Shown: positions 2,783-44,925, counted from the first letter of the stretch. The stretch: DNA of 64,000 nucleotides from Amphiscolops sp. MND2022 (GCA_964187785.1 OZ076409.1:64792001-64856000), one strand, 5' to 3'. The notes: generated by a model not told the origin, from the letters alone. Made by a program: numbers and translations.

Positions 2783-3159
2783 CCCAGGTTGACCCAACAT
2801 ACTCACCATACTATGATCATACTAAAATCATACTATGATCATGGTCATTCCATGATCATGATCATGCCAAGACCTTACCACAGTGACCATGTTCCATAGT
2901 ATGATCATACTATGATCCATCATGTTTCATAGTATGAACATAATATGGAAATAATGTTTTGGAGAAAAATGTCGGACATGACAACCACCTGTAAACAAAG
3001 TTTACAGAAATAGGTTGCCGAGGTCCTTATTCTGTATTTTTAAGGAGGCTCTCAGCTCGTGAGATACATAGTATCACACTTGACGAGACCCACGACGAGA
3101 ACGTGGCCTCCACGGGTCTCAAAAAAAACTGAAAAAAAAAGAATTATGAAATACTGAAA

Positions 3160-3533
3160 GGAAATCAGCTATTGAAATAGGAATCAGATCTAAAAGCTGG
3201 GTCAATTTGATCTAAAAACGAAAACTCTGAAGACAACGAAACTAAGTTATGCATACTTTCGCCTCTATTGAGAATAATATCTAAAAATTTGGCAAAATAG
3301 CTGCAAAATTATGGAGATCAGCTATTGAAATAGGAATCAGATCTAAAAGCTGGGTCAATTTGATCTAAAAACGAAAACTTCAAGACAACGAAACCAAGTT
3401 ATGCATACTTTCGCCTCTATTGAGAATAATATCTAAAATTTTGGCAAAATAGCTGCAAAATTATGGAAATCAGCAACTAAAATAGGAATCAGATCTAGAA
3501 CCTGGATCAATTTGAACTAAAATCATCGAAAAC
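3160..3533. repeat. ~152/162-bp satellite, left block
   Basis: Repeated GGAAATCAGC...ATAGGAATCAGATCTA...GGCAAAATAGCTGC units, the same family as 15316-17305. Confidence 0.9.
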
Positions 3534-3534
3534 C

Positions 3535-4360
3535 CGGGTGACTAAAGGCCTGAAACATGAAATTTATTTGATAAACAGATTACGCGAAAAACATTAAGAT
3601 TAGGTTTTTCAAAAATAACGCGGAAGCAATCGAAAAATATGCACAACCGAGATAAATTTTCCACAGAACATATATCTACAAACCAAGAAAACCGTTAGTA
3701 CGGGTGACTAAAGGCCTGAAACATGCCATTTACTTGATAAACAGATTACGCGAAAAACAATAAGATTAGGTTTTTCAAAAATAACGCGGAAGCAATCGAA
3801 AAATATGCACAGCCCAAACACGTTTTCCACAGAACATATATCTACAAACCAATAAAACCGTTAGTACGGGTGACTAAAGGCCTGAAACATGAAATTTATT
3901 TGATAAACAGATTACGCGAAAAACATTAAAATTAGGTTTTTCAAAAATAACGCGGAAGCAATCGAAAAATATGCACAACCGAGATAATTTTTCCACAGAA
4001 CATATATCTACAAACCAAGAAAACCGTTAGTACGGGTGACTAAAGGCCTGAAACATGCCATTTACTTGATAAACAGAATACGCGAAAAACATTAAGATTA
4101 GGTTTTTCAAAAATAACGCGGAAGCATTCGGAAAATATGCACAGCCCAAAAACGTTTTCCACAGAACATATATCTACAAACCAAGAAAACCGTTAGTACG
4201 GGTGACTAAAGGCCTGAAACATGCCATTTACTTGATAAACAGATTACGCGAAAAACATTAAGATAAGGTTTTTCAAAAATAACGCGGAAGCAATCGAAAA
4301 ATATGCACAGCCCAAATACGTTTTCCACAGAACAAACCGAGAAAACCGTTAGTACGCGGT
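3535..4360. repeat. 166-bp tandem repeat, ~5 copies
   Basis: CGGGTGACTAAAGGCCTGAAACATG starts at 3535, 3701, 3867, 4033 and 4199. Confidence 0.95.
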
Positions 4361-6481
4361 CACTGAAGGTCTAAAATATGCGAAAAACCTAACATACTAA
4401 TTACGATATAACTACGAGTATAACGATAACTAGCCGCTACCGCGCTCAGGAGCACACAAAAAAGAAATTTGCCATACGTCGTCGAAGGGCATGCCTCGGC
4501 ATGCCCACGGACGGTGGGCGTCGGAACGCTATGTGGCGTTGTACTAGACACGGCGAAGCCGTACCGGGAGGGTGGGACCGATAACGTTAGGAAAAGTAAA
4601 TGTTATGCTGTTGAAGGGTGAGAATTGTGTTTTTCATTTTGATTTGTACTTTTCTCGACAAAAAATTTTTAAAAAATGTCTTTGAGTTTATATTTTTTTT
4701 ATCAAAGACCGAATGCAATCGTTATCTGACCTGATGGAAGGAACTAACGATATGATCGAATCACGAAATTAGTCATCGACAGCAACATCCTATAAACAAA
4801 TGAGCTTTTTGTTGACAGTTTTTTGATGTGACAGCCTTCTCAAGTTGACACAAGGCCAACTTGAAAGGCCATCACAAGATTCAGCTAACAGGTACTTGAA
4901 GAATATGCACAACTTGTCCAGCCAGGATCGTAGAAAGAGCACATGTCAGCATTGTGAATATTTTTAATCATTTTGGGTCCGTAAGGTTATGTTAGAAGTA
5001 TTTAAAGATTTTTTAGGCACGATCAATGCCATTCTATCTCAGCAAAATAGCGTATTTTTTAGCTTCGGCTTTTTATTCTGCTACAAATGTAACACATGCG
5101 AAGGGAATTATTTCGGAAAACAAAAGACATGAGTGTTTCTGATCAACCACAGTGTTCATCTATATTCTAAACATTGAATAAAGTAATTGAAAGTATATGG
5201 CGAAGTGTTTTGAGATATTGGGCTAAAAATTTTGGAAAATACAGTGCTATCTGGGAAAAAAATGATTCATACCATCCCTTGAGCAGACCGATTCCTTCAA
5301 AAACCTCCTTATAGTTCTGAAACTCATCCTACGCATCCTTTGTACATAGTGATTGACGAAAATGAGTTAACTTTTGATAATATCACTCTTCACTGTGATC
5401 CCAAGCTTCCGAGATATTTACTTCGATTTAGAGCTTTGGCTCTGAATAACGTCTTATCACGTCTCATATGATATTGGAGCAACTGATACCAGTCCCAGTC
5501 GTGTTTTTGAGTATCATGGGCCCCACTGGTTACGTCAGAGTTAATAATTTTGCTTAAAAAGCTGAATTTGAATTTTCGACCTGACAAAAAATGGGTATTT
5601 CGGTCGAAAAATTTCTAAGTTCCGAATGTGTGCAAAATGACTGAAGACCGGGTGAAAATATTTTTTTAAAGTTTCTTTTAATATAAATGGTTCCTACGTT
5701 GCCAGTACAACCGTTCTTGAGCATAAAAGCTTTTGCCGACACGCCTGGATGAAAATAATATGTTGAAAATGACCAATTTGTAAATTGAAACTAATTTTGG
5801 AAATCCTTGTGAAACACCTAAGACCTCGAAAAAAATTTCAATTCCACATTGGATGCAAACTGTTGAGTGTTTGGCAGCGATTAGTTTCCGACAGAAACCA
5901 TGGATACCAAGGTTTCCAACTTAGAGCAATTAAAAATTTTTTCTGTGGCGTTTTTGACATATGGGGTACAGATAGTAGTGATAAAAATTTCAAAAATGTC
6001 GAATTTTTCAAAAATGTAAAAACTTTATGTCTTTTGTGTTTAATGCATTGTAACAGACACGAAACGAAGGTCTCGAGCTTGTAGAACAGTCAAGGTCCCG
6101 GGACAGTTAAAGTCGAGGGACTGAAAATGGTTTTCAAAGATAAATAAAGATGCATGCAGGAACATGTAGTCCACAGTAAAATATGTGAAAAAAAACACGA
6201 ATAAAAAAGGTTATCTCCCAACTTCTATTGCTTGAACAAAAAGTTATTCAAACCAATTAAATAGATAATAAAACTAGCAATGTTAGAATGAGATTGTCCC
6301 AATGCAACGTTATTCCCAGGAGTCAGCCAAAAAAGCATCGAAGCTAAGCCGACTCAAGAGTAAACGATGCATAACAAATTCACTACAGCAGTCAGCCAAA
6401 AACCCAGAGCTACGTCGACTGAGGGACTAAAAATACAAGTCTCCGTTGGAGGATTGGAAACTTGGGATGAACAAAAAGAAA

Positions 6482-8162
6482 TCAAAAGTGGCTGCTCTCT
6501 CTGCGAGTACTGGACGTAGTAGCATCCTCGCTCGCATGGGGCAAGTCAGCTTTCCATTCTCGTCCCCTCTGATTCGCAGAGTTGCGGGCCAGTTGATACG
6601 CATATTGCGCTTTTAGAGGGCCTCTCTTCGAATAAGCCCATAAAACAAGCTCTTTAAAATCAGCTTGCTTCTGTAGGTCAGCTGCCGGACGGGTCGGTTT
6701 GTTTCCTTCAGGCTCTATCATGGAATGAATAAGCTCACTTTCAGCATTTTTGCCGAAAATGTATTCAGCTATCTTCCGACCATATTTTGAGGGCTCGTAG
6801 GAAATCGTCAGCTCACGTAAGTTTATCCCCTTGTATTTAATTTCTCGAAGATCGGAAATATCATTGGAGCACGTTGCTTCAGTGTCGGCATCATTAACGA
6901 CATCGTCGTTGAATGCAGCAGCTTTTCCGTTCTTGAAGAAGAACTCAACAGACTTTGACTAAAAAATCATTGAAGTGCTGTTAGATGCACACATCGAGCG
7001 AATATCTACAAACCTTGTCTCTTATAACTTTCAGTAATACTTCAAATATGCAGTTGGGGTTTCAGAGTTCCTATTTTAAGTATGACTTAATGCCTCTTAA
7101 AACTTAAAAACAAATGTCCAAAACTTACAAAACTCAAATGTGCAGAAAAGTAGTATGAGCAGTTTGAGAGAAATTTTTTTTCACTATACCGTCGTGAATA
7201 AAATGGCACAATAGTCATCTTAATCGAAATAAATATTGCCGATCGGCAGACTTGAATGATTAATTACTATAACTTGCATCTTAAGGATTTTTATTGACCT
7301 ACCAGGCGTTCGCGTTCTTTCCGCTCTTTCCTCGCTTCCTCGCGATACTCCCTCCAACATTCCCTGTGCGATTCCAGCAGCTTCTCCATGGTAGTGGTAA
7401 AAACCTGCAGGGTCTCGCGGATTGCGCCAGAAGTACACTGAAAAATATAACAATGGAAATGTACGCTGTCAACAAATGATAAACAGAGATCGCAGTTGAT
7501 GAACAGTCTCAGAATCAACTCTTGCACCAACAAAAACCTCAAAACGGGTTCTCAGTTGGGTGGAAGTCTAAGTAAAGAAAGCAAATTCATAGACCTTGCG
7601 CTAAAACTCCACACGAACTTACTTTTTCACCACCATCGAATTTGCAAGGAGTTGATGTCAAAGGAGCTACGTTGTCATGGAGAACAATCGGAGATTGTTC
7701 AAAGACCGGTTTTGGTTTCGCAATCTGTTTTACACGCTTAAGGGGTGGCTCCTCGTCCTCTTCCTCCGAGTTATATGAGCGTTGAGTTCTTTCCGGCTGG
7801 GTGTCAACTGGCGCAACGTTTTCTTCACCAGTGAAGGAAACGCTCAAATCCAACAGCGTTTCTTGCATGTTGGAAATCAAATTAGGACCTTTCGCCTCGA
7901 CTTTCCTCAGAAACTCCTCAGTGCCGCTGTCGATCAACGAGCACTCGTGAAACTTCCTGGTGACAGGATTTCTGATTTAGATCTTTGCGTGTTTCTGAAG
8001 ACTCAGTTTGCGATGCAGCGTCAACTCCTTCGGCCATCCTGAGCTTTCTGCAGAAATCATGAAAACTGTTTTATCGCCAGGGCAATAGAACAGCCAACGA
8101 GTATTGGCAACATCCTCCAAAAGCGTTCTAGTATCGTTGCTCCTTTTTTCGCGTTTGTCCAT
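6482..8162 (-). CDS. Multi-exon coiled-coil + C-terminal BEN-domain protein (one premature stop in exon 1)
   Basis: Exon 8162-7623 has an in-frame TAA at 7977-7979 and a GTAAGT donor. A coiled-coil exon at ~7438-7303 reads AIRETLQVFTTTMEKLL...ERERL|GTAGGT. The last exon 6958-6482 follows TTTTTTAG and encodes PSKYGRKIAEYIFG...ELIHSMI...GNKPTRPAADLQKQADFKELV...AYQLARNSANQRGR, matching the BEN helical pattern. Confidence 0.6.
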
Positions 8163-9361
8163 GACGTTAAACCAATGTCTGAAAATAAAGCAAGATCAAT
8201 CAAGCAACTACAATTCATGAAAAAATTGTTTGAAACGTTAGCACGAGCGCGTACAATCGCAACGCCAATCCCAAAAGTCAGCCAAAAAAAGCATCGAAGC
8301 TAAGCCGACTCAAGAGTTAACGAAGGATGATACACGTGAATGAAACCAATTAAATGAAGCGTTGACAATTTTCACTGAATGAGTTTACAGGCAAACTAAA
8401 CCCAGCTAAGTGGTCAGCCAAAAAAGCGTCAAAGCTAAGCCGACTGAAGGACTAAAAATAGTTTACCTCTAAAAGATAAAGAAAGGTCCATGGTAGAACC
8501 TGTCAACAAAAAAGGGAAAGAAAACCTTTGCTTGGTAACGCAGTGATGTCATCTTTACCTGAGATAAAGTGTACATCACGCTTTCTTGTGAAATTTTTTC
8601 TTGTCGTCTTTTAAGTTATAGCAAAAAGAGACAGCAACGTTTACAAGACGCTCATATTTTCTACAAAAACAGTAAGTTGCGTTTTCCGTTCGAAGAGATA
8701 CGATATCTAGAAGCAAGTATATACGCACGAATAAAAAAATTGATCTCCCAACTTTTATTATTTGAAGAAGAACTTATTCAAACCAATTAAACATAATAAA
8801 ATCAGCAACAATGGAATGAGTTTTACCAACGCAACGTTTTTCCTTAGAGTCAGCCAAAAAAGCATAGAAGCTAAGCCGACTCAAGAGTAAACGATAACAA
8901 ATTCAGCCCAGCAGTCAGCCAAAAACGCATTAGAGTCACACCGACTGAGGGACTGAAAATGGTTTTCAAAGATAAATAAAGATGCATGCAGGAACATGTA
9001 GTCCACAGTAAATTATGTGAAAAAAAAACGCGAATAAAAAAGGTTATCTCCCAACTTCTATTGCTTGAACAAAAAGTTATTCAAACCAATTAAATAGATA
9101 ATAAAACTAGCAATATTAGAATGAGATTGTCCCAATGCAACGTTATTCGCAGGAGTCAGTCAAAAAGCATCGAAGCTAAGCCGACTCAAGAGTAAACGAT
9201 GGATAGCAAAATCAGTCCAGCAGTCAGCTAAAAACGCATTAGAGCTAAGCCGACTGTGGGACTAAGAATGGTTTTCTAAGATAAATAAAGGTCCATGCTG
9301 GAACATGTAGTCCAGTGTAAAATATGTGGAAGAAAACGCAGGGAGACGAGGTTTTTGTTTC

Positions 9362-12300
9362 CTAATTGTGGTCAAAGTGTGAAGACAATTTAATCAAAAT
9401 GTTCTGGTGCTCGAAGGAGAATACAATAAGTTTTCCCAAAAGTCGTTCACAAGGTAAATCAATTCTTTCATTGGTTGTTTTTCCGTGATAAAACGCACAA
9501 GGTAAGCGATCGCCACCAGGACATTTGAATGATTTTTCCACAGCGTAAAGCTCAACGAGACAGAATTTACGTCGTCCACGACGGAAAAAAGCAATCACTT
9601 GACCGAATATGAGTTGGTCGGCACCAATGGGAGAGAAAGTAATGAAAGAGTTGGAGTTAGATTTTGTATCACTGGCTGAATCAAAAGCGAGTCCATTCAG
9701 AACTTCTCTCGCTGACACTGAAGACGCTCGGCTACAAAGTTCTCGAACATCATCGGTATCCTTCAAGTGTCCTTGTCCAATTTTTTTCCGGCCCGAAAGT
9801 AACTCAGAAGTCAAATTAAAAAGAGCGTTGTTTTCAAGATTTGTTCTCAGAAGTGACTTCTTGACCAGGTACCGCTCTACCAGCAACCTCAAATGGTTTA
9901 CAGATCCAGTGAATGCGGAAACAAGGGAGTGGTGGGCCGATTCAAATGCGAAGCAAGATGCTGTCCACAAGGGGCCATAGTTTCGAACTTGCCAAGTGAG
10001 ATGACGCAAGGAGTGTAAATTGAATGTTTGCTCAGCACTGTCGATGGCAGCAAAACCGGCACAAAAATCGTTGAGTAACTGATCACACTCTGTCAGATGC
10101 TCATCACTTTCAAGTAATAATCGGATGGCATAGGAAAACTTCCACAACAAGTTACTGATATTTTCAGCCAACAAATCCAACGTCACTACAGGTGCGACAT
10201 ACAACAGCCACGTTTTGAATTCACTTGCTTTGAAATGCGACATTTGGTCCAAACCACGAACCGATCGTTGAAACTCAAACGGCATTTTGAAACCTTTGGC
10301 TCTTTGGTTCACGATTCTCCTTTCCATGGGTTGTAAAGAAGTGTACATGTGATTCAAAAAGTTTTTGGCTACACCCAAGCAAACAGTGTGCATGTAATCG
10401 ATTGTCACGAAGAAAGGCATCCTCTTAGTGATCAAAGTTAGGAGGGCTTCTACCTTAAGGGTATAGAGCTTTGTGCAAACATTTGATTTGGAAAAAGCAT
10501 CCAAAAACTTGAAAAATCTGTTGTTGTAAGTAGAATTCATATCACAAAAGGGAATCCATATGAATTTCAGTTTTTTTCTCGTTCAAATATCGTTTTAATT
10601 TCCGACATATATCTTTGTTCAATACCCTTGACACCCTTGGTTCGGTTGCGGAAAGATTTTGACCCAGGATCAAAGTCCGCTGCTTCTAGTTTTTGCGCTT
10701 CGGACAGGTTTTTCTCATATGACTCGAAAGTCCGCATCTTGATAACAATGTTACACGGATAAATTCGCTGTCTGTGCGAGACGATTTCGCCTTCGTCTTC
10801 ACAGAGATGACAGCCAAAATAACCGTTAAACTGCTTCATGTTGAGTATTGCAGCTTTGGCAACATTATCGGCACTGAGAAAGACGAATTCTACGATTGCA
10901 GCATACGAAAAACCCTCATGGCTAACAAATTTAAGATCTGTGATCTCTCTTTGGACATACTGGAAAACAATTTCGAAACCAGGTTTGCCATCACCGAACC
11001 ACAAACTCGCGAGAGCAATATTGTCAAAAGAAAAACGCAACACCGAAGGCAAATCAGCAATAATTATCCACAATGGGTAGAGATGTTTACCCGAAGAATG
11101 GATGATTTTGACGCCATCGGTCGAAATAATCAAGTGCAGCGTAATAGCTGTTTCAGTTTCATTGATAAACTTTCCAAGTCTGATGTCGTTTCTGGTATTA
11201 GAAATTAAACTCCGAGATCGTTCCACCAAAATTTCCCAATTTCGACAGCATATTTCTTTCAATTCCAACGAAAACCTCAAAGGTATCAACCCACCTGAAT
11301 TACAAGGAACCTGGCTGTATGTGTTCTCAAGAAACGTTTTACGACTCTCTTTTTTGAATTTTTTTATTCCTGGCAAATCAGTGTCGGGTTTTAGGAGACG
11401 GAAAACTTTCAACACATCGTTCATCAGCGCGTCCGATGCCCGATGCTTGGAGCCAATTGCAGTTAAACACACTTTGAGGTTATTGAGCTCGATTTCAGCA
11501 TCATCAGTGTTTTCGTTGTGATGATTGGGAGTCGAAGAACCTAATGGTTGTACCACATCGAGATGTTCAATTGGAAAATCCTCAGAAGAAAGATCAGTGG
11601 ATTCATCCATTGGCGGACAGCGTAGATCTTCTGAGTCTCTGGGAGAATTGTTCAAACGGACAGTTCTTTTTCTTTTATAGGACTTCGATGTCTCTACACC
11701 AGCGAGTGCCATAAACCCCGACAAGGAAGAAATACGGGGTCTTCTACATTTTTTGTTCCGTGACTCAGGAGACATTGACAGACTGGAAGGAAGATCAGAT
11801 AACTCCTGCTCATGAAGATGTACATGCGGACATTGACATTCAAGTGTTTCGAAGAAGTGTTTCCCATAAAACACTGTTATCTCTTCTCCTGGTTGAATAA
11901 TTCTCAAAGTTTTCAATCTCACACACGGTATTCCATTTGAAGATGTGAACTCATATCGGCAATTAGGGTCACAAGGGGAATTGACGAAACGAATGGTACC
12001 TGCCAAAAGTCTGGGCAAGTTGCATAATTCTGTGGCAGCAACGGTAGATGTATCATCGAAGAGGTGCTCTTCGCTAGGCTTGATTTTAGCGACCAGTCCA
12101 ACTGGAAAGGCAAGAACATTGTCTCCTAACCTCTGGTGCAGTGTCGTGAGGGTATGGCCACCGAATGCATCAGCCACAAAACTGTAACCAGCTTTCAATG
12201 TCTCCGCATAAATGTCCTCTAAGCGGCGCAGTAAGTCCAACTCCTTTTTCGTTGCCGTTTCACTGAACGTTGAAAAATCCGGTAGCTCAATCAATGTACT

Positions 12301-12381
12301 TGCGGTACGACCAGTGGTATAAACGAACTTCTTGGCAGCAAAGCCATCACAATAAGCCAAAGTGACTGGACGGAAACTCAT
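9362..12381 (-). CDS. SUV4-20-like SET domain fused to EnSpm/CACTA-family transposase (two exons, predicted intron ~10450-10625)
   Basis: ORF 12381-10567 has the SET motifs RFVNSPCDPNC and IQPGEEITVFYGKHFF..CQCPH, then transposase motifs LIISTDG, LYPLWIIIADLP, SLWFGDGKP, ADNVAKA, QFNGYFGCHLC and KGVKG. ORF 10540-9362 has IDYMHTVCLGV, RSVRGL..FKASEFKTWLLY and FNLHSLRHL..QVRNYGPLWTASCFAFES. Confidence 0.85.
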
Positions 12382-12697
12382 TGCATGACACTTAAATTTC
12401 AAAAACAAATTATCGACCGTGAGACTAAAGAATTTCCATTTACTACATTCAGTACACTCTCAGTGAATTCAAACAGTCAATAGAAGAATTTTTCACCTCG
12501 TCCACTGATTGAGCAGTTGATAAGCACTAAAATGGAAAACACAAGCAAAGAAAAGAATAGTTAGAAAAGCGAATATTAAAATAGAAAAAAACTCGTAAGC
12601 AGACGAAAAAGATTGTTAAAGGAAGGGGAGAGTTTAAAGCGCGTGAAGAGTTCCGGCAAAAACAGATGCCGTAAAACGAATATCAAAAGTTCCACTT

Positions 12698-13075
12698 CTA
12701 ATTTTGAAAATGCTGGCTTTCACTTCTGGCTCGTTGTTTTTTCCGTTTTTTCTTCTCAGCGCCTGTCAGTTTTTTCTGTATCAGAGGCAACGTCCCTTCC
12801 TTGAGTCTCCTTACTATCCTAGAGAGCGTTGCTCTGATTGAAAACCTTGTTTGGTGGAAAGGGTCCCCAGCCTTGAAATGAAGACCGCCCAAGAATATCT
12901 CATGAACTTTCGATGATTCGCTCAAAGAACACTGTAAGAGGGTATTTTTGATCTCCCTGTTGATTTCTCGTTCGTTGATGTCACATGGCAGCTTCGATTT
13001 CTCCAAACGCCACAACACACAATTCTTCCTAGCTTCGGCATTTTTAATTTGCCTCTTTGAGATTCCAACAAACAT
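12698..13075 (-). CDS. Orphan ORF (125 aa, basic C-terminus) inside the EnSpm-like element
   Basis: Open ATG-initiated frame co-oriented with the transposase, with an NLS-like KKKRKKQR stretch. No recognised domain. Confidence 0.3.
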   Translation of the reverse strand: MFVGISKRQIKNAEARKNCVLWRLEKSKLPCDINEREINREIKNTLLQCSLSESSKVHEIFLGGLHFKAGDPFHQTRFSIRATLSRIVRRLKEGTLPLIQKKLTGAEKKKRKKQRARSESQHFQN

Positions 13076-13450
13076 TTCGATATTGCGTCGTTGGCAAAGT
13101 TGGTTGGCCTGTATCGGTAATGCTCATTTTGTGTATATTCAGTTTTATTTCAAACAATTTTTCATAACAGCATGCAAGGAACTAACCAAAAACGAATTAG
13201 AACTTGAATTATTCGAGTAAGGTGTCATAATCGCCGTGAGGCATGAAATCGATTATTTAGCTAACCTTAAAAAACGAAGAGGTCATCCATGTGGTTACTT
13301 GTGTAGTTATTATTACTTTCCTTATTACAGAGCACGACATATATGACGATATCAATGACCACTTATAATTTAGGATTCATTGAGGGATTTTAAGGCCGCT
13401 TCAACTTTAGTGGTCCAAAATGAAATCTGCACATAATCTAAACAGGTTTA

Positions 13451-13876
13451 CTAGTTAAAATGAGCACCACTGGCCTCAAGCAAACGTTTTTTCACTTCGG
13501 AAGAAGAAATGGCATCATTCTGTCGTCCACGATTAGTAAACAAAGAATTTTGAATGAAATCGGGATAAATAAAAATACACCGAGCCCCCCAATCAAAAGC
13601 AGAGTGTAGAGCTCCATTGAGGGTTAAACTCTTGTTCTGGTGTTGGAACCTAGCCCCGCTTCCCCCAAAGCATTTTAATTGACAGCCATCCAAATTGTTC
13701 AAATGAAACGGCACAGTACATTTGTTGACACAATCACAGGTCTGCCACCCAATTTTTCTGAATACTGGTCTGTGAAGTCTCTTAAAACTGCTCCTGCAAT
13801 GTTTCCGAACAGAAACAAAACCGTTCGACGCAATCAAGACTGCTATTTTCTTGCCTTTCTTTCCTATTCTGGCCAT
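13451..13876 (-). CDS. Orphan ORF/exon (141 aa, Cys-rich) inside the EnSpm-like element
   Basis: Open frame preceded by an acceptor-like TTTTTCAG|ATG, on the same strand as the other element genes. No recognised domain. Confidence 0.25.
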   Translation of the reverse strand: MARIGKKGKKIAVLIASNGFVSVRKHCRSSFKRLHRPVFRKIGWQTCDCVNKCTVPFHLNNLDGCQLKCFGGSGARFQHQNKSLTLNGALHSAFDWGARCIFIYPDFIQNSLFTNRGRQNDAISSSEVKKRLLEASGAHFN

Positions 13877-14608
13877 CTGAAAAAGGCGTAACTCCTAAGT
13901 AAATCATAATACATTTAAAAAACAAACGCATAGCAGTAAGATGAGAATAATCTTGTGTGCAAATACCAGAATGAACCAGATTTACCTAGTAAATTACAAC
14001 CACAACAACACAAGTAGAGCAATATTGAAACAATTAACAACAAACGCCAGCTTCATACAGGGCTGTATGAGGTTCTAGGCCGTATCGGAGACAGCTAAAA
14101 AACTGCTGTATACAGCTACTCTAGTTGCTACAAGGATTCCTACGCAATACACCTACGAAAAACTACGAAAGAAACATGCAGCTAGAGAAAAGTCCGGGAC
14201 ATCTTCCCCGAAACCAATGTTTTCGAGTCGGAAATACTGAATTAGAATTAAATAACACAGAGGCGAAGCCGTGCTTCGCAAACACTTGCGAACTTTTGAA
14301 AACCAAATAAGCAATATCATACGTAGAACCAAGAGTAAGTGGACTATGTTAAAATTTCATCAAATTTACAGCGCCAAAAATTCCCGAAGGGATGGGCATA
14401 AGTCTCGAAAGCCTTTCTTCCCCAACTGAAAACAGCAAACAACCCATCTTCCTCAACGGAAAACCTTAAACACAGAGGCGAAGCGGTGCTTCGCAACACA
14501 TGACGAAGACATCGATTATTTTAAAGATAGCTTAACTATAGCTATATTAACGTACGCGTATTAATATCGCATGCGTATATATTCAACAGTTCAACTTTGT
14601 TCAATAAC

Positions 14609-14680
14609 GTTCCTATGGCACAGTGGTCAACACTTATGCCGTGCAATCGGGAGGCTGCAGGTTCGAATCTCTCGGGGGGT
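14609..14680 (+). other. tRNA-derived sequence (Pol III A/B boxes) embedded in a repeat
   Basis: A-box TGGCACAGTGG and B-box GGTTCGAATC at tRNA spacing. The stems are degenerate. Confidence 0.55.
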
Positions 14681-15315
14681 TTTTGCTTTTATCTAAAAGG
14701 CGCTCATTATGAAGTTGACTATGGTGGAAAAAAAACTTTCTTAGCTGGACTGCAATGCACATTGACTTCGTCTTGTGCAAAATCAGAAAATTGAAGGAAA
14801 AAATTCCAAATTGAAAAAATTCCAAAGTTTTTCCAAAAAATTTTTTTTGAAGGTCACCGGCAATTTTTTTGAAGTCGCATAGTGCCGAAATCCTTGACGA
14901 TTCCTTTACAGTCGCAAAACGTTTCATTTTTGGTAAAAATTGAGGGGGGACTTCGATGAAAAAGTCGCATATAAAAAACACCGGTCTTGGAAAAAATCGG
15001 ATATAGCGTGCTGGGCCTGAGAAAACCCAATTTTTAAACAAAAATAATTACTTTTGAAAAATCTCACAAGGCCGAAAACTGTGAAAGGGGGGTTCTTTGA
15101 GGTTTTTAACGTTCGTTCTGTTGCAAAATATCAAAAAAATGAAGGGAGGACCCTTTGGGGACATTTAAAAATTTTCGAAAATAGGTCTCAAAAAGCCGAA
15201 AAGATGGGAGACTCCCCAGTCTCATTGTCGAAAAAAATGAGAATCTTCCGCTTCGAAAAACTTGTAAAAAAAATTAGCACACAGGCAAGAAAGTGAATTA
15301 TGCGACTTGCGGTCT

Positions 15316-17305
15316 GGGCAAAATAGCTGCAAAATTATGGAAATCAGCAACTAAAATAGGAATCAGATCTAGAACCTGGATCAATTTGATCTAAAATCAT
15401 CGAAAACTCTGAAGACAGCGAAGAGTATCTAAATTATGCATAATTTTGTCCCTAAATCGAGAATAATATATGAATTTTGGGCAAAATAGCTGCTAAATTA
15501 AGGAAATCAGCTCTTGAAATAGGAATCAGATCTAAAAGCTGGGCCAATTTGATCTAAAAACGAAAACTTTAAGACAACGAAACTAAGTTATGCATACTTT
15601 CGCCTCTATTGAGAATAATATCTAAAATTTTAGCAAAATAGCTGCAAAATTATGGAAATAAGCAACTAAAATAGGAATCAGATCTAGAACCTGGATCAAT
15701 TCGATCTAAAATCATCGAAAACTCTGAAGACGGCGAAGAGTAGCTATATTATGAATGATTTTGTCTCTAAATTGAGAATAATATGTGAATTTTGGGCAAA
15801 ATAGCTGCTAAATTAAGGAAATCAGCTATTGAAATAGGAATCAGATCTAAAAGCTGGGTCAATTTGATCTAAAAACGAAAACTTTAGGACAAAGAAACTA
15901 AGTTATGCATTCTTTCGCCTCTATTGAGAATAATATCTAAAATTTTGACAAAATAGCTGCAAAATTATGGAAATCAGCAACTAAAATAGGAATCAGATCT
16001 ACAACCTGGATCAATTTGATCTAAAATCATCGAAAACTCTGAAGACAGCTAAGAGTATCTGAATTATGCATAATTTTGTCTCTAAATCGAGAATAATATG
16101 TGAATTTTGGGCAAAATTGCTGCAAAATTATGGAAATCAGCAACTAAAATAGGATTCAGATCTAGAACCTGGATCAATTTGATCTAAAATCATTGAAAAC
16201 TCTGAAGACAGCGAAGAGTATCTAAATTATGCATAATTTTGTCTCTAAATCGAGAATAATATGTGAATTTTGGGCAAAATAGCTGCTAAATTAAGGAAAT
16301 CAGCTATTGAAATAGGTAGAGGGGGGAATAAGATCTAAAATCAAAAAAGGGAATAAGATCTAAAGGGAATAAGATCTAAAATTTCAGGACGGGAATAAGA
16401 TCTAAAGGGAATAAGATCTAAAATCGGGAAATTGTCTCTAAATTGAGAATAATATGTGAATTTTGGGCAAAACAGCTGCTAGACGGGAAATTGTCTCTAA
16501 ATTGAGAATATGTGAATTTTGGGCAAAATAGCTGCTAAATTAAGGAAATCAGCTATTGAAATAGGTAGAGGGGGGAATAAGATCTAAAATCAAAAAAGGG
16601 AATAAGATCTAAACGGAATAAGATCTAAAATTTCAGGACGGGAATAAGATCTAAAGGGAATAAGATCTAAAATCAATGCATTTTAGATCTTATTCCCCCC
16701 TCCCTGAAATAGGAATCAGATCTAAAAGCTGGGTCAATTTGATCTAAAAAGATATCATGGATCTTCGTCATCAATCAAGTGCCATGTGTATCATCATGTT
16801 GGGGGGAGAAGTCATGTTTTGATCTAAAAACGAAAACTTTAAGACAACGAAACTAAGTTATGCATACTTTCGCCTCTATTGAGAATATTATCTAAAATTT
16901 TGGCAAAATAGCTGCAAAATTATGGAAATCAGCAACTAAAATAGGAATCAGATCTAGAACCTGGATCAATTTATCTAAAATCATCGAAAACTCTGAAGAC
17001 AGCGAAGAGTATCTAAATTATGCATAATTTTGCTCTAAATCGAGAATAATATGTGAATTTTGGGCAAAATAGCTGCTAAATTAAGGAAATCAGCTATTGA
17101 AATAGGAATCAGATCTAAAAGCTGGGTCAATTTGATCTAAAACGAAAACTTTAAGACAACGAAACTAAGTTATGCATACTTTCGCCTCTATTGAGAATAA
17201 TATCTAAAATTTTGGCAAAATAGCTGCAAAATTATGGAAATCAGCAACTAAAATAGGAATCAGATCTAGAACCTGGATCAATTTGATCTAAAATCATCGA
17301 AAACC
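15316..17305. repeat. ~152/162-bp satellite with alternating A/B monomers, right block
   Basis: Monomer B (GGAAATCAGCAACTAAAATAGG) and monomer A (GGAAATCAGCTATTGAAATAGG) mostly alternate. Small insertions interrupt the array. Confidence 0.9.
16566..16704. mobile_element. 139-bp Mutator/Foldback-like MITE
   Basis: TIRs GAGGGGGGAATAAGATCTAAAAT / ATTTTAGATCTTATTCCCCCCTC. The 9-bp TSD is TGAAATAGG (16557-16565, 16705-16713). A partial duplicate lies at ~16316-16424. Confidence 0.75.
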
Positions 17306-17504
17306 CTGGAAAGAGTGAACAGTATACAAATTATGCATAATTTAGTCTCTGTATTGATATACATATCTAAAATAAGCGCTTTTTCCATCTTGAAATCCTA
17401 TTTTTCCAAAAAATCTTACCCTATCACAGCGGCTTCAGGAAACGCGGTGCCGAAAAGCGTCCTTAATGCTACCCGGGTCATTAAGGTAACCCTAGATCTT
17501 CCAA

Positions 17505-18051
17505 GGGGACCGCAACTAAGGTCTAAGGAATAAGATCTAAAGAAATTTCGTAACTAAGATCTAAAGAACTAAGATCTAAAAAGCATGCACCGTAACTAAG
17601 GTCTAAATTGAATTAAAATAACGTCTAAGGAATAATGTGGGGTCATATACGGTGTATGCACGCTCGCCCTCACCGTCGCAAAGACCAGCTCCCACTACGA
17701 TCGCTTCGCGATCTCCGTTTCCGCTAGGTCTTTGCTCCTGTTCGACCTCGCTTAGCAAGATGGGAACATAAGCGGCCCCAAGGGGCCGCAGGGCACTAGA
17801 GGAGATGGGGACATATCTGAGGCACGTTTTATACTTTAAAGCATTTTATACTTTACCCGTAACATCTAAAAAATGGGAATAACGGAAATTAAAACGGGAA
17901 TAACGTCTGAAATTTAGACTTTCGGTACGATTCGGGAGCTGGCATTCTCTAGATCTTAGTTACGAAAAATGACATTTAGATATTAGTTCTTTAGATCTTA
18001 GTTACAGAAGTGCGTTTCGATCTTATTCCTTAGATCGTAGTTTGTGCCCAC
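17505..18051. mobile_element. 547-bp Mutator/Foldback-like MITE
   Basis: Exact 9-bp TSD ATCTTCCAA (17496-17504, 18052-18060). The long TIRs are built of TAAGATCTAA subrepeats. Confidence 0.8.
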
Positions 18052-18299
18052 ATCTTCCAAAACCAAATAACGCGCCAACGAGTCACTTTTTGATGTATTT
18101 CAAATTTCAAATTTTGCCGCTAGGGGACTTCGAATTTTTGAAAATTTTCGAACATGGTCACTCATACTATGACCATAATCGTTGCCATGCTAGTCATAAT
18201 ATGACCATACTATGACCATATTATGATGATCATTTTTCACCATGATCTCACTATGACATAGTATGATTTACCATTTCTGAGTATGGGGGTCAACCTGGG

Positions 18300-18720
18300 C
18301 CTCCACTGTTTGGGACGAATTTTTGGTTTGATATGGCAAGATCGAGTCTTCAACGTTGAGGTTCTCCTGCGTGCAGGAATTACATGCCATATTGGCTCGG
18401 AGACTTTTACGATGGCTCGGACAAATTGCCCTTTTGCGAGAGATATGCATTGGAAAAGATCTGCTACATGACGAGCTTGCCATTGGCTCTCGAGCATTAG
18501 AAAGACCCTCAAGAGAATGTTCATTCAAAAATTGCTAGAGCGATCTCAACTCACCGAACATCGGCTCTACGGAAATCGAGGTGTTGAAAGCAGACTGAAC
18601 TCCATGGCACAAGGTTACCGATAGGCTGCCGAATCAGTTGAGTCAAGGTGAAAGATGATGCCTAATAGAAAATGTCGGCGAAACGAGAGATGAGAGATCA
18701 CAAACAACCCACAGTGATTA
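18300..18720 (+). pseudogene. RTE-clade LINE, part 3 (C-terminus)
   Basis: LHCLGRIFGLIWQDRVFNVEVLLRAGI, RRLLRWLGQ and KDLLHDELAIGSRALERP match the RTE C-terminal motifs. Confidence 0.85.
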
Positions 18721-21096: not shown

Positions 21097-22561
21097 TGTC
21101 GCAGGCTCCGCCTGTGACAGTAATGTGTACGCGATTGACCATAGTAGGCCAATCGCCCTACCAGGAACGCTACCGTTATAACAAACTGAAACTCCCAAAG
21201 TTTCATTGACATTTTGAAACTTTACATGATTGTTCTCAATACATGTATATGCATTTAATTCAGTTACGTGCTATAAAAATTGACAGCAAGCTATACTGAC
21301 AGGCAGAACGGAATGAGTTCAAATGTCTGCCTGCTCAGTATAGATAGCATAGCTGTCCACAGCGCATTAGGCAATCACAGTTTAGCACTTGGTTATTGTT
21401 TAGCACATGTTTTATTGCAGCACTGGTAATTTATCAGAAAAGAACGAATGAGGCCACTTTGCCTAGCTGGTTTTATTTGTTAAACTAATACTGTTGTTGA
21501 TGCTTGCATCTTAGAATGTGTGCCGTTTAATGAACCCTTTCATTGACAAGACGCTGATGGGAACTCTAAATTTGCTATCAACGACGTTTCCTCAGCATTG
21601 ATATCTGTAGGGCCTGACATAACAGGATGACCAGACGAGTTTTAGTGCACATGAAATGTCGAAATGAAAAATTGCTGTTGAATATTTTGTTCATGTAATT
21701 AGCCGTATTAGGCCACACTTCACTGCTCCCCTCCCATTTTCCTTGCCGCGACAGACTCTGATCTCGCCGCCTCAAAAAACAAATGTGACATTTTTAGATG
21801 AAGTCTGTTTTTAGTAACATGGTTGCGATAATTCTGAGTGTCATGACCACTTGGGTAAGTATACCCGAACTGGGAGTTTGACCACAGAATTTTCTATGGA
21901 TCGATATAGACAAGTTGCTTTCTTAGTGTTCATTGTACAATCAGCATAGATAACCATATTACAAGAACAATTTAGATATTTCTTCCTGAACGAACATCCA
22001 TGCCATCTACGAGAAAACAAAAGGCTAAAGCTAGAAAGTCGAGCGAGATGGGCATTTTGTCCATTTACGGCAACAAGGGCGTAATGTTAGCAGAAGGTAA
22101 GTCAAACGCCATAAATATGGAACTTGATAGCATCCTAAATTGTTCTGACAGGCAACCGGAATTCCAGTGCTTACCTAACAGGGAGAACTCGTCTCAAGAA
22201 AATGAGATCAGAGATATTGATAATGGAAATAGATCAATTAAGTAAGAAGAACTGTCTGAGCCTAATAATTTTTTGTCTGGTGAGATGAATGATAGACTCC
22301 TTTGGGAAAGTGATTCGTTGCTGGACTTGATGCAATCTCACATTTGCAGGGCAATTAGGGCTGCTATAATCGATAGAGTTTCACCTGATATGCAAAATAA
22401 AACAAGAAAATTGTCTTCAGACCGAATTGGTCCTGAGCTGTGTACGTCCTCAACTGAAGATGGCATTGGTATTGCTTGGAAAAACACAAACAAAAAAATT
22501 ACAATGAAGGACTCAAGGTCCGCTTGTGATTTTAGAGAAGATACAGACTTTACTCCTTACA
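21097..22561 (+). repeat. 5' LTR of Gypsy-1 (~1465 bp)
   Basis: TGTCGCAGG start after GCCTC, ACTCCTTACA end followed by the PBS. Homologous to 29571-31027. Confidence 0.7.
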
Positions 22562-23877
22562 TCGTGATAGGAGCCAACGACCACCAACATCCGATCACTG
22601 AATTCCCCACAAGACAAATTCAATCCCAGCTAGGCTTGCAGAGGCCAGCACCAGCCCATGACACAACGATGGATACAACTCTACCGGTAGCACAGACCGT
22701 CCCGGTTGAACAACTACAGGATCCTATCAATCGACTAGTAGACGTACCAGTGAACCTAGAAAGCAAACCACAGTCGATGACAATCAGACCAGTCACGACA
22801 ACTTCTATGACTTTCGATGGCAAAACCAACAAATGGGAACTATTCGAAGATCTCCTCCATACCATGGAATCAATGCAGCCTGCCATGACAGAACAGATGG
22901 AAAGCAACCATTTTCATTCACCATTACAGAAAAACGCCCTACAGACCTTTCGAAATCTAAAATTGATAATTTGCCAATTATTGGAAGACGTATTTGTCAG
23001 ATAATGCCGAAATTATGTTAAACGCGATTCTCAAGTCACTGCAAAACACAAGGGGCATAGACTCATTTTTGACCCCAACATCATGAAGTTACCAGAAATC
23101 TTGAAAGCTTTCAAGTAAGGCTCCTAGAAGATTTTTGGTGACAATGCCAAAAGCATGATCGACAGCTTGCTTCATGCCAAATTTAATTTGGAACTCAAAA
23201 AAATTGCAAACTTTGCCAGGTTGGAAAACGGGACTTATGAGGAAATCGTTGCCTATTTCAAGAGAAAATTAGAACTCACAGCTTTGGAGGAATCAGATGA
23301 ATTACCAATTGCCGCAATGGCTTCAACATCCGGCTCGAAACCTGCTGTCTAACGACATTGATACAAAAAAACGCCCAATGCTCATACTGCAAAGCTGAGG
23401 ACCACTACTGGAGAAACTGCCCGAAACTTAAAACGAAACCAGATACGGACGCTAAAAGTGGCAAAAAGCCACAACACCCCACGTACCCAGAATACCCAAC
23501 TTGCAGCAAAACCAACCACCCAGCAGAAGAGTGTTGGCGCCCAGTAGGTGCGCGACACCGCCCTAAACGAAATAGACAAGATGCCAAAACCACTTCGGTC
23601 TGCGACGATGAAGAAAATACCCCCATCGCTCACAAAACCACATCAAATTGGAAAAATTTTATCCAATAAACTATAATTTTGCCACGACTCCATTTTTGTG
23701 ACCGAATGTCAATACGACAAAATGTCATATCTGACCCTGCTAACTTCTACCAACAATCTCATAGCGACATCAACGGAACATCATCAGTTGTCTGGCGGTA
23801 ACAGATGGAAGAAGCTTTTATTAAAACCTACAAATTGGTCCATGATGACCGAGCTAACATATTTACGCACTCGACTA

Positions 23878-25204
23878 CATTACAGTGCATCTGCAAGGTA
23901 AATCGCCACAGACACTTTTCTGTGCGTGTATGTCCTCCGATTAAGTAGACATGTCTTAAAGCGTGTAAAATTGGCAATTTAGCACTGATTTTGCGGAATC
24001 CACGCCACGAAAATCGGCGTTTTTCGGAATCCGAGGGCATGGGTTAATACGTTAGCCGGTTTCAAATTGCGGAAACTGGGACCAAAAATATGCCGACAAA
24101 TGCCGATACGATGCCGCCAAATTCGTGTCTTGGATTCCACAAAGTGCATTACAACCAATCAGATGCCTGCAAATTTTAGCGTCTTAGTTTCCACTTACAT
24201 TTTAATTAGCTGAAATCAAATTTAATAAACCAGAGAGTAAATACAAAGTCAATTACCACAAACAAGTTACAATCAATGTCTCCCTTTCCGTAAAACTGTC
24301 GGCTTCTCTTCCTTTCATCTATACTATTCTATACTACTATATTATGGTACTACAATTATACCAACTGTAATTGAATTTGAAAAACTGAAATTTGAAAATG
24401 AATTTGAAAAAACGAAAAAGGAATTTTTCTTTCAACACTTTACTATAGTGGAACGTGCCCGTATTGAATCATCATAATTCAATTACTTTGTAGAGTTGAA
24501 CTTCGGAATAGAGTACTTTCAGAATAACGTAAATCTCGTAGTTACGTAATCGTTTGTCGTGACCTGTCAAAAATAGTATTATATCAACGTGATAATTATT
24601 CAAGGCAGCATAAGGGACTGCTTAAAATCGCATACCGAGCCCGTATTTTTGAGAATGCGCATTAAAGCGCATAATCGAGCGAATATACTGCTCTATTTGA
24701 CGCAGCGAAAGCATTTAGTTTAATAGCAAATAGATATCGTTCAAAAAAGAAGACCGTTGGCCAAATAGGATGCGCGCTAGCTTTCCGATCGTGAGATCGT
24801 GGGTTCAGATCCCGCTAACGGCAATTATTTAGAAATGAGAGACTGATTTTTATCTAGCAATTTTCATCTGATTTCAAGAGATAAAATGCGGAAACACATT
24901 ATAATTGTTCCGGAATGTAGGTGTACGAATTACTCTACTGAATAAAACTCTGGAATCTGAGACACGTTGCACTATTTGCTTTCTACATAATTGGCTCGTT
25001 TGAGGCCTGGCATAAGTGGCAATTAATTGGCCTCATTAACTTGCCAAGACACACAAATGCGGAAAGTAAGGTTTCAACATCAAAGGAAGCTGAGGCAGTC
25101 GACATCAAAGAGGAATGAATTCAGTGCACGTGTCTCGGTTTCCGAGATTTCGTGTCCTGATTTCCGCAAAACGCTCAGAAAAAGCTTGCAGATGCACTTT
25201 AATG
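23878..25204. mobile_element. Non-autonomous TIR element with TA TSD (Tc1/mariner-like ends) inserted in Gypsy-1
   Basis: TA|CATTACAGTGCATCTGCAAG ... CTTGCAGATGCACTTTAATG|TA (20-bp TIR, 1 mismatch). There is an inner imperfect inverted pair TTTTGCGGAA/TTCCGCAAAA. Confidence 0.8.
24753..24823 (+). other. tRNA-like sequence inside the TA-TSD element
   Basis: CCGTTGGC...GCTAACGG acceptor-like stem, A-box-like TGGCCAAATAGG and T-arm GGGTTCAGATCCC. Confidence 0.5.
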
Positions 25205-28200
25205 TATACTCAAGGCTTTGTTATCGAATTCCGACCACTGCAAGTAGTGCAAGGTTATAACCCTCATTATATCGATCCCGGATAAGGTATCGATCCGTAT
25301 TGGGACAACTCCCTTTCTGACAAATGAAAACTACAATTACAATGTGAAGATTACCCACCGGGAGGCGATGAAGAAGACGCTGAAACCCAGACAGTAAATT
25401 ATCGAGGTCACTGATCGAATTGTGGCAGCCGAATTCGGAAAGTAATAACCTGGAGGAAATAGAGAATCAACCCTTCGAAACCGAATCAAAGACCAAACGG
25501 CCTAATTGACGAAACCGCCTTTTTGCATCCCCTCGTGACTAAAGAAGGAGAACCGCCATATGTAAACCTCTCTAAAAACCTTGGACTTAAGTACACAAGA
25601 CGGATCCTTCATTTCCCAATGGGATTCGGAGAATTAACCATGGACGGCCTAATCGACACTGAGGCCCCATCCGTTGCAATCCAGAACCACACCTCTAAAA
25701 AAGTTGCTTTTTGGCGCCCCAATAAATAGTTAAAGAGGGACCAGCTCCAACTTTCCAAATCATGATCGCAAATGGACACATGGAAACCTCAAAAAGCACC
25801 GTTGAACTAAAGTTCAAAGTGGGTGACATCGAGTTCCATGAACTATTCATTGTCATGGAAAAATTGTCCAGTCCAAAAGAATCACACAGTCCTGGACTTG
25901 CGCCAAAGTATCCTTAACTTCCCCTCTTTCTCTATGCAACTCAAAACGGCCGACCATAAATACTTCAATATGTTATCGAACCAACACTTAATCCAGACGA
26001 CCAAATGGCCGAATGCTAGTTACAGTTAAATAACAAATATACCCTGATAGCCTTGTGAACTTTTGCACGAAGAAGGAGACATCACTTTCTGCGCTGCAAT
26101 TGTCACCTTGTTGGATGAGATAGTAAGGTTTTACGACAACAACTTCACTGGTCAGCCATATGAACTCAAAAATGGACTACATACAGCAAATTTTTCGGTT
26201 TTAACAGCACAGCAGATGAAACACGTTAAACCCCTAGACCCAGTATCTTCTTGCCATTTGCTGAACGAAAGTGAAAAAATGCGACCTGCAACGTCACCAG
26301 TCTCCTCAAAGCAAACAGATATAGTGACCACAATTTTGGTTTCCAACAACCGAGATCCCAAGGGACAAAGCGTCTCACACACCTATTCAAAGACGGATTT
26401 TGCAAGATTTAGGCAATTAACAAGATTCAGAAAATTCCATCCACAGGACAACGAGGAATCTAGACAAAATTTCCTTGGCGATTTTGACTGGAAGGACTCA
26501 ATGCTACAACTCATGAAGTTAAGAGGATTGAATCGCTACTAGTAGAATTTAATGACATTTTCGCCTGACACGGTTTTGACATAGGGATGATGAGGAATTC
26601 ACGGTCAAACTGACCCCGATAAAACTAAGCCTAAATACTCCAGTCAAAAGAAAGGAAGATATACTAGCAGAATTGGCACTACTCTACAAGTATGGAAAAA
26701 TCACAACACTGCCATTTACAAAATATGCAAGCCCGATCTTTGCGCAGAAAAAAACCCAATGGCAAACTAAGACTACTGGTTGACTTGAGAAAAATCAAAA
26801 ATCTCATCTCAGATGATTACATTAACAACAATCATACAGTAAGCTCCTTCACAGACGCGGCGCAACACAAGGCCGACAAAAAACTTTTCCGCAAACTCGA
26901 TTGCTCGCAGGCCTACTTTTGTCTCCAGATGGCAGACTAATGATCCATTGAGATGCTGCGTTCATTCGCAAGCAGAACGTTCGCCTACAGAAGATTTGCC
27001 CAAGGACTCAGTAGAGCCTTTTCGGCCTTCTCAAGCTTCATGCGCGAATATCTGGTCAAAGTTATCAAAGCAGATCAATTCGCGCAACACTTGGACGACA
27101 TAGACATAGCTGCCAACGAGGCCAAGCACCTGATTAAAAACCTGAGAGCAACATTTGAGTGCATTAGAAAAACCGGACTGAAATTGACAATGCACGAAAG
27201 CTATTTCGGGGCGACTCAAACCACAAAAACGGGTAACTACTTTCCTGAAAAAACGAACTTTCAAAATCTTTTTAAAAACCCCTGCCAAGATATCTTGGGT
27301 TCCTGAATTACTACAGGTACTATATCCCAAGATGTTCCGAAAACCAAACTCCAAGTATTCAACTCCTTCAAATGGACGAAAAAAGTCTTAAAGACCACAG
27401 GCCTAATACAACAGTTCAATGAAGTCAAAAAAACTTGAATAAATGCTGTCACTTGGCCTTAAAACAACCTAGTCCTAATGACACGCAACTTTTGCGGCAG
27501 CAGGAGACGTGATCTTCACCGAGGATGACTCAAAACAAAACTTAACTTCTGTCAAAAAATCATATGCTCCGATAGCATATGGATCAAAAACCTTTACTCC
27601 ATTGCAACTCAAGATGTCCATATATGCCAAAAAATTCTTAGCTTGTTTGCAGTCAATTAAGTTGGACACAAATTCCGGGGAACGCTTAAGCCGATCACTA
27701 TCCTGACGGACAATAAATCGGTTACCAGATTCTGGCAGACAAAAATAGTTCCTCCAGCACTCTTGAACTCATGTGACAGATTTTCAGGAAATGGAAATTG
27801 TTCTCGCAATGAAAACTGAAACACTTTCATCGGTGGATTTGGTTTGGAATGGGACACAAGAGAAGGAGGTCGGACACTGTGTACTAACTCGGGTAGTTCT
27901 TCTTTCTCAGCTTCTTGTTCTTGGAGTGAGTGGCCTCCATGGAACTGGATTCTGACAATTCCTCCTCTGACGACATATCTAAACAGAAGAAAATGAAAGT
28001 TTGCGGGAAATTACCCAGAATTGAAGCTATACTGCCGCATTTACAATCTTGAGCGCCAAGGTTCTCCAACTAAAAAAGGACAAAAAGTACGTGGATGAGA
28101 AGGAGAGCATTGATCAAGCTCATTTTCGTTCAAAATTACAAGACCAGAGAGCTTGCCTGTGGCTGTTCGACAAATGAAGACTAATTGTAGAAGAAGAGAA

Positions 28201-44252: not shown

Positions 44253-44925
44253 CTACCCGCGGAAGAAGGAGGAGTCAAGAGTTGAAAGGAAAAATGCAGA
44301 GAAGGACCAGACAGCAAAACAGCACCGAAGGACGAGTGATGAAGCGGCAGGCATGTTAACAAAAATGACAAGAGGAAGAGCGCTCACAAGAACACAGAGA
44401 AAAAAATGAAAGGAGATATAAGAATACATAGGTAAACAGAAAGAAGGATGGGGGCCTCGACTTAAAAAGGAGAAAGAGGAAGAAATCAAAAAGAAAGAAA
44501 TAGGGGCCAAATGGGGGGCCAGAAGGAAGTATGTGCTGAGTAAACGCTAGTGCGATAAATATGGTGAGTTATACATTAATAAAAGGTACAGTGAAGAAAT
44601 AGTAGGAATGATGAATGTTTAGCAAAAGCAAAAGAAGAGAGGAAGTTGGCACAAATGTGCAGGTAAAGGGACTCATGGGGGCGGAAGAGCGAAATAACAA
44701 ATGTGAGTGATTGAGCACAGCATATGGGAGCAAGAGAGAGATGTTAGAACTAGGCAAATATACTGAGTGAGGTGGGTTTGGACGGTGAACATACGTGACC
44801 GAATGTCAAGAAGGTTGATGTAACAGAGGTCTCAAGATGGATTGGTGAAATTGTTTACATGATTTCAACAAGCAAACAAAGATCTCTTGAGAGGGCGAAG
44901 CACAGAAAAGCAAAAGTAGTGCAAG

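Follow-up and report, generated by a model that had tools for sequence, protein, structure and literature searches.

An EnSpm-like transposon family that encodes a SUV4-20-derived SET module in frame with its transposase

The window analysed here, by which we mean the whole stretch of 64,000 nucleotides, comes from a eukaryotic genome of 1.07 Gb and contains an EnSpm-like (CMC) DNA transposon of 15.5 kb on the minus strand (2783-18299), which encloses a gene joining a SET module to a transposase. A stop-free frame of 604 amino acids (12381-10570, minus strand) spans the SET to the transposase part, bearing out the uninterrupted SET-linker-transposase frame reported in a preliminary description of this DNA. 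When compared with Pfam, the frame gives a SET match over the cut-off (aa 103-173, E 2e-10) and a DUF1258 match under it (aa 405-533, E 4e-7). The second half of the transposase lies in a separate frame (10582-9362, minus strand). The features of the element, in window coordinates, are:

2783..18299, minus strand: whole EnSpm-like (CMC) transposon, recognized from the C3, C5 and C13 copies, which match up to or near both ends, and from its TIRs and flanks
2783..2805, plus strand: left TIR CCCAGGTTGACCCAACATACTCA, preceded by the 2-bp duplication CC (2781-2782)
3103..4380, unstranded: left subterminal arrays of ~152-bp units (3103-3525) and 166-bp units (3535-4380)
4467..6098, unstranded: nested repeat that the C5 and C13 copies share and the C3 and C7 copies lack
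6482..8162, minus strand: second, probably spliced gene ending in a putative BEN-like domain, with an in-frame stop near 7979 in the window copy
9362..10453, minus strand: transposase exon 2, with the H(3)H motif and the catalytic Glu; frameshift at 10443 in the window copy
10454..10625, minus strand: predicted intron of 172 nt, phase 1, GT..AG, from flank conservation in three subfamilies
10626..11489, minus strand: transposase exon 1, with a helical domain, the first two catalytic Asp and the C(2)C motif
11490..11811, minus strand: Ser/acidic linker, disordered and with basic patches; the window copy has lost 29 aa near 11499
11812..12381, minus strand: SUV4-20-derived module, aa 1-190, with shortened N-flanking helices, SET and post-SET Cys-x-Cys
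12698..13876, minus strand: third coding region in two frames (13876-13451 and 13123-12698), upstream of the fusion gene
15242..17371, unstranded: right subterminal array of alternating 152/163-bp units, the unit and its orientation as in 3103-3525
17504..18051, unstranded: nested MITE with an 8-bp duplication and long inverted arms, missing from the C5 and C13 copies
18278..18299, minus strand: right TIR, followed by CC at 18300-18301

The intron is predicted because its flanks, with GT at 10625 and AG at 10454, are conserved in three subfamilies and its interior has diverged. The C-terminal half of the transposase had been placed after a probable intron, and it is indeed encoded in 10582-9362; in this copy, the frame is broken just after the predicted intron. 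An extra base at 10443, private to the window copy among the aligned copies, ends the spliced frame at 594 aa. Reading the second exon as an open frame from 10582 was ruled out, since the extra base is missing in the other copies. The window copy also lacks 29 linker residues that are present in its four closest copies. The earlier pairings of its motifs with those of SUV4-20 match the PDB alignment. The NSPC in its SET motif is a private Ser-to-Pro change (all six other copies checked have the Ser codon). The window copy is dead and the full protein cannot be made from it; it had been read as a working gene, a reading that fails on the frameshift. The disorder of the linker is apparent in the model of an intact relative, with pLDDT below 50 for aa 178-317.

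The ends of the element were located by tracing copies outward. Its TIRs are 22-23 nt long and start with CCCAGG, and the end motif has 308 matches genome-wide, against 0 for a reversed control. A 2-bp duplication flanks three of the four elements with both ends read, namely the window element (CC) and the C3 (CT) and C5 (TC) copies, and is absent at the fourth, a 1.4-kb derivative. The proposed copy count and examination of TIRs and target duplications thus revealed a multi-copy, TIR-bounded element with 2-bp duplications.

The transposase carries the residues expected of the CMC clade. The two Asp of the DDE triad are invariant in both alignments (A1 and A2), and the Glu is invariant in A2 and present in exon 2 of the window copy. 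D451, D534, C553 and C556 are invariant in A1, as are C641/C644 and H855/H859, of the C(2)C and H(3-4)H motifs, in A2; both motifs are found in the window. According to excerpts of PMC12730594, the clade is defined by the DDE triad plus C(2)C and H(3-4)H, placed between the second Asp and the Glu. In a Foldseek search with the model of an intact relative (P0036), the top rows were RAG1 (E 6e-12, TM about 0.55 by target, about 600 columns), and the modelled fold is RAG1-like. Transposase_21 matches of the relatives were weak and under the cut-off. The TIRs and the 2-bp duplication at three of four elements agree with the TIRs and 2-5-bp target duplications of the clade, but the termini read CCC..GGG, and not the 5'-CA..TG-3' that CMC elements have in most cases (excerpts of PMC12730594). 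We therefore call the element EnSpm-like and of the CMC clade. The EnSpm/CACTA type assigned earlier accordingly holds for the triad, the two motifs, the RAG1-like fold and the TIRs, and departs from it at the CA..TG ends. Animal EnSpm elements with CCC ends exist. Animal EnSpm/CACTA elements (CMC(T)) and RAG1/Transib also share with this family the 2-bp duplication, subterminal repeats and additional ORFs; the present family differs by its CCC..GGG rather than CA..TG termini and by its N-terminal SET, which all 30 transposases outside the branch described below lack.

The SET module derives from SUV4-20 by sequence, fold and tree, as the preliminary description had proposed. In a PDB sequence search, the best 10 of 18 matches were SUV420H1/H2 (E 1.5e-9 to 9.7e-9; next class 4e-5), and the family profile matched SUV420H2 with E 1.7e-28 (next class 6e-9). 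Superposing the modelled aa 1-193 on SUV420H2 gives Z 20.3 and rmsd 2.7 over 186 aligned residues, and the next family reaches Z 11. The model aligns to chain residues 4-240, so that the helical N-flanking domain of SUV4-20 is present in shortened form, with two middle helices apparently deleted. In a SET tree of 57 rows, one clade (support 100/99) unites the 40 transposon SETs with the host SUV4-20, with a Set9-like protein of cellular type and with two more ORFs that look mobile; outside it lie eight further SETs of the host and five additional repeated SETs. An AU test (p 0.30) neither establishes nor rejects that the transposon SETs form a group to the exclusion of the host gene. In the host SUV4-20 gene, on C12, two predicted introns interrupt the part that is intron-free in the transposon, which upholds the earlier view of an intron-less SET, and capture via mRNA is plausible. 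Atlas matches of the SET part to Chlamydiota SET clusters (at most 162 of 256 shared features) were taken as generic SET likeness, given that profile, fold and tree point to SUV4-20.

The fusion extends well beyond the window. Four other copies of the window element share 94-97% DNA identity with it, and two sister subfamilies in the genome, at about 70% DNA identity, both contain SET and transposase, as do many distant subfamilies whose lineages are 22-35% identical. Among five distant loci that were read, three hold single intron-free frames of 1016, 1043 and 1099 aa; at the remaining two, about 140 nt separate the SET frame from that of the transposase. Since sister subfamilies and many distant lineages carry the junction, it is not a chance one, and the test for a chance junction that had been suggested ends with a fusion shared across the family. 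Word-index protein searches, which were shallow, gave few matches (7 and 4), and an alignment search returned only the query itself. Profiles built from 12 relatives were used to search a library of 1.84 billion proteins; among the best 150 matches, which include 11 of these relatives, both domains were present in 28, the SET alone in 13, the transposase alone in 105 and neither in 4. A quick tree was built from 63 transposases after near-duplicates and short matches had been dropped. In this tree, all 24 SET-bearing rows group in one 33-row branch (SH-aLRT 98), and the other nine rows of this branch are N-terminally short or start in linker-like sequence. None of the 30 transposases outside the branch has an N-terminal SET, six of these having long N-termini. 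The subgroups of the branch mirror the SET tree, which is what a single capture followed by co-inheritance would produce. The fusion is ancient, family-wide and co-inherited.

Other genomes also carry the family, given that the scored candidates of this genome reach no more than 40% identity to P0036 and 39% to P0044 and that one of the loci (L069) comes from another assembly. In one relative subfamily (L072-L075), four copies on three contigs share 99.85-99.92% identity over 4 kb, suggesting that it was active recently; about 200 nt lie between the SET and transposase frames of these copies. At L072-L075, L064 and L067, the two frames are separated by gaps of about 140-200 nt, which fall in the linker at L064 and L072-L075. 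Should these gaps be introns, a SET protein on its own might arise through alternative splicing.

Between subfamilies, the SET shows pN of 0.18-0.26 and pS of 0.69-0.81, the latter near saturation, and omega is 0.11-0.15 (four of eight pairs; the others are saturated). Over ten copies, the tree-wide omega of the SET is 0.27, compared with 0.44 in the linker and 0.17-0.25 in the transposase core, and SET omega among copies within subfamilies is 0.4-0.8. Purifying selection acts on the SET part, and the dN/dS comparison called for earlier thus detects constraint between subfamilies. It is very improbable, and already largely refuted, that the SET is a passenger, joined by a chance junction or a neutral capture. 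The broken window copy and the omega within subfamilies would fit such a passenger, but these values correspond to the ordinary decay of dead copies, which affects the transposase too, and neither the strong constraint between subfamilies nor the persistence of the SET in frame across such divergent lineages does.

The active site was compared over 118 columns in 40 SETs with a median identity of 31%, numbering residues after mouse Suv4-20h2; eight of these rows are SET-only fragments assigned by similarity, and the cellular protein P0186, which is without a transposase, was left out of the counts. Four of the 118 columns are invariant, three of them being Ser161, Asn182 and Tyr217. The lysine-channel residues Ser161 and Tyr217 are each kept in 40/40, and Ser161 of Suv4-20 holds the substrate lysine (PMC3874154, here and below from excerpts). 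The motif-I Gly is mostly kept. In the post-SET zinc site, the first three Cys are found in 38-39 of 40 SETs; the fourth is found in 11 of 41 rows (one being the cellular P0186), and in 27 of 41 rows a His follows 3-9 residues later. Of the 40 SETs, 25 have lost His183 of the NH motif, the window subfamily among them, and 15 keep NH; the residue is Ser in 23. Tyr164 is lost in all 40, and the substrate-side SET-I residues 160 and 162-164 vary freely. Basic patches follow the SET. SUV4-20 uses arginine anchors for the nucleosome's acidic patch (PMC10697951, in excerpt); these anchors cannot be aligned to the linker, nor the patches across lineages.

A further change concerns the pocket that demands K20me1, formed in SUV4-20 by Phe191 together with Trp174, Ala178 and Ile181 (PMC3874154). 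Position 191 is Tyr in 31/40 and Phe in 7/40, and Trp174 is present in 0/40, with Met or Leu in its place; the window SET has Tyr at 191 and Leu at 174. The cellular Set9-like protein is also without Trp174 and has Met there. Owing to this altered Phe191/Trp174 pocket, the module is SUV4-20-derived and stands outside canonical SUV4-20/KMT5B-C membership. It has in common with SUV4-20H1/H2 (KMT5B/C) and Set9 the fold, including the N-flank, as well as Ser161, Asn182, Tyr217 and three zinc Cys; it differs in that 191 is mostly Tyr, Trp174 is gone, His183 is often Ser, the fourth Cys is mostly absent, the N-flank is shortened and the SET region has no introns. The label of 'heterochromatin writer' is therefore not supported as it was given: the me1-to-me2 pocket is changed in most or all lineages, and the label is unproven because the specificity Phe is Tyr in 31 of the 40. 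Product specificity may differ between lineages, since seven SETs keep the Phe. In line with the heterochromatin writer of the preliminary description, the SET might work like the host enzyme and deposit H4K20me2/3 on the element itself or at the break left by excision, for self-limiting silencing or to favour end joining. The invariant Ser161, the seven SETs with Phe191 and the fifteen with NH agree with this idea, but Phe191 is absent from 33/40 and Trp174 from every SET, and as both build the me1-binding pocket, we consider it distinctly improbable.

The reading that we put forward, tentatively and from conserved residues, is that the SET could be a re-tuned H4K20 methyltransferase, probably making me1, which the transposase tethers to the element ends. 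An ancestral EnSpm-like transposon would have captured the SUV4-20/Set9 catalytic module once and passed it down fused to the transposase. The transposase would bind the element ends, a DNA binding expected from CMC/RAG1 biology, and the SET, hanging from it on a long flexible linker, would be tethered there as in SETMAR, whose transposase DNA-binding domain brings the methylase to element ends (excerpts of PMC6326780). Given that the catalytic residues are kept, the SET of the family probably marks or grips chromatin; most likely, it still binds SAM and methylates H4K20 on nearby nucleosomes. With Tyr at the switch and no Trp, the re-tuned pocket would probably take unmethylated K20 and make me1 rather than me2/3. 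Tyr at the switch position is a mark of monomethylases among other SETs (PMC3874154). H4K20me1 is reported to open chromatin (PMC8379281, in excerpt). With this mark, the element or the site it targets would stay open, and the repair of breaks could be steered. The switch Tyr, which nearly abolishes the activity of the mouse enzyme, the losses of His183 and Tyr164, the loss of the fourth Cys, the apparent deletion in the N-flank and the acidic-patch anchors that do not align to the linker count against this H4K20me1 reading.

The SET may instead be a catalytically weak or dead reader that grips the H4 tail or the nucleosome and steers the transposase by the state of K20, as chromodomains do for some integrases, which we regard as unlikely. 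Changing the switch Phe to Tyr in mouse Suv4-20h1 causes a dramatic loss of activity, which is nearly abolished (PMC3874154), and such a reader would also fit with the loss of the NH His in most SETs. The lysine-channel Ser and Tyr would stay conserved in a reader as well, and non-catalytic nucleosome roles of SUV420H1 are indicated by PDB titles. The SAM-motif Asn is, however, invariant and the motif-I Gly mostly kept, both of which argue against a reader. Active SETs without the NH His also exist (PRDM9), which further weakens the case for a reader.

It is quite unlikely, too, that the SET is an active lysine methyltransferase for a substrate other than H4K20, be it the transposase itself, proteins that partner it, or a factor of the host's silencing or repair. 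Invariant catalytic residues alongside SET-I residues 160 and 162-164 that are free to vary would suit such an enzyme, but main-chain contacts dominate the reading of H4 by SUV4-20 (PMC3874154), and variation in SET-I need therefore not change the substrate. Another multi-copy ORF of the genome bears a SETD8-type SET, SETD8 being the second class of H4K20 writers, which also speaks against a different substrate.

Searching the genome for the Pfam SET domain yielded 1,399 first-look candidates, and 150 of the 150 scored were over the cut-off, with many repeated identical scores. Seven repeated SET types were sampled. L051 and L053 are of the SUV4-20 class in a different type of ORF; L048 is of the SETD8 class, and L050 and L052 group with it in the SET tree; L049 and L054 are without a SET class, the PDB matches of L054 giving no clear one. 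As the genome holds far more SETs than a host needs, H4K20 enzymes are suggested to be a recurrent mobile cargo. A wider and doubtful proposal is that elements repeatedly captured both H4K20 writers, SUV4-20 in the EnSpm-like clade and in a second, unrelated type of multi-copy ORF, and SETD8 in others, and that the SUV4-20 of the EnSpm-like clade turned into a monomethylase, with the transposase writing H4K20me1 at its own ends and break sites. If true, an H4K20-centred counter-defence would keep elements open and steer repair. Zinc-finger-like and recombinase-like parts lie beside the SET in the L051 and L053 ORFs. We take L051, L053 and L054 to resemble tyrosine recombinases by their motifs, a label that Pfam did not confirm.

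SETMAR, the one SET-transposase fusion named earlier, is not the only parallel: SET genes are already in print for HarbingerS and MuDR of Phytophthora (excerpts of PMC12730594) and for Helentrons, and the SET of the proto-Helentron is a separate ORF most like Clr4 (H3K9) (excerpts of PMC4067079). All of these resemble the present family in being mobile DNA elements with a SET methyltransferase. HarbingerS, MuDR and Helentrons belong to other superfamilies and other hosts, whereas here a CMC transposase shares its frame with a SET of the SUV4-20 class. SETMAR (Metnase), the source of the tethering model, also has its SET N-terminal to the transposase, but it is a domesticated host gene derived from mariner with another SET class. 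The present family does not consist of a single-copy host gene without mobile ends, being multi-copy and TIR-bounded, with both decaying and near-identical copies. TET/JBP-carrying fungal transposons and plant Vandal likewise encode their own epigenetic modifier or anti-silencing factor, but these target DNA methylation and are separate genes (excerpts of PMC12730594). We found no report in the literature of a SUV4-20-class SET fused to an EnSpm/CMC transposase, although a Repbase entry may exist, and excerpts of PMC6431247 list no such fusion. SET-carrying transposons are thus known already, and what appears to be new is the in-frame SUV4-20-class fusion in a deep, apparently still mobile CMC clade. 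SETMAR raised the question of whether a transposase profits from a histone methylase of its own, and is itself a retired host gene; with the fusion in a mobile, diversified family that has intact single-frame members, this question becomes directly testable. The 40 natural SET variants also probe the specificity of SUV4-20, as they keep the catalytic Ser and mostly contain the switch change that kills the mammalian enzyme.

Two further coding regions lie in the element. The gene at 6482-8162 had no Pfam match; its first Atlas matches (0.92-0.93) were to clusters with BEN in 12-25% of members, with a recognition score under the threshold, and its BEN-like identity is a lead only. A 21-aa match to this gene occurs downstream of the fusion gene in L069. 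The region at 12698-13876, also without a Pfam match, is conserved in the sister subfamilies at 54-65% aa identity in one frame only. At L069, a GDSL/SGNH-like ORF (11659-12333, plus strand; Pfam E 8e-5, under the cut-off) follows the fusion gene and two BEN-like pieces. The third ORF of the window was considered as its counterpart and rejected, there being no match between the two.

Several observations concern the repeats in and around the element. The subterminal units measure 152-168 bp, about one nucleosome, both in the window family (3103-4380 and 15242-17371) and in the distant L069 (2756-3762), and one may speculate that they position nucleosomes for the SET to act on. The repeat nested at 4467-6098 forms tandem arrays elsewhere, with a period of about 2 kb, on C1-C4. 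The end motif recurs at a spacing of 1.3-1.7 kb at C1:63166983-63173058 and C1:76502271-76507421, which suggests tandem arrays of non-autonomous derivatives. The MITE at 17504-18051 is presumably hAT-like, and we take the insertion site of the element to be a LINE-like fragment, its LINE class being read from its translation. Elsewhere in the window, 22200-28000, 38500-42300 and 44900-58300 are presumably decayed LTR-retroelement frames, labelled from their translations as gag/pol-like, copia-like and gypsy-like; what we take to be the gypsy-like element contains a frame resembling env, and an internal duplication of 2.25 kb lies at 47499-51950.
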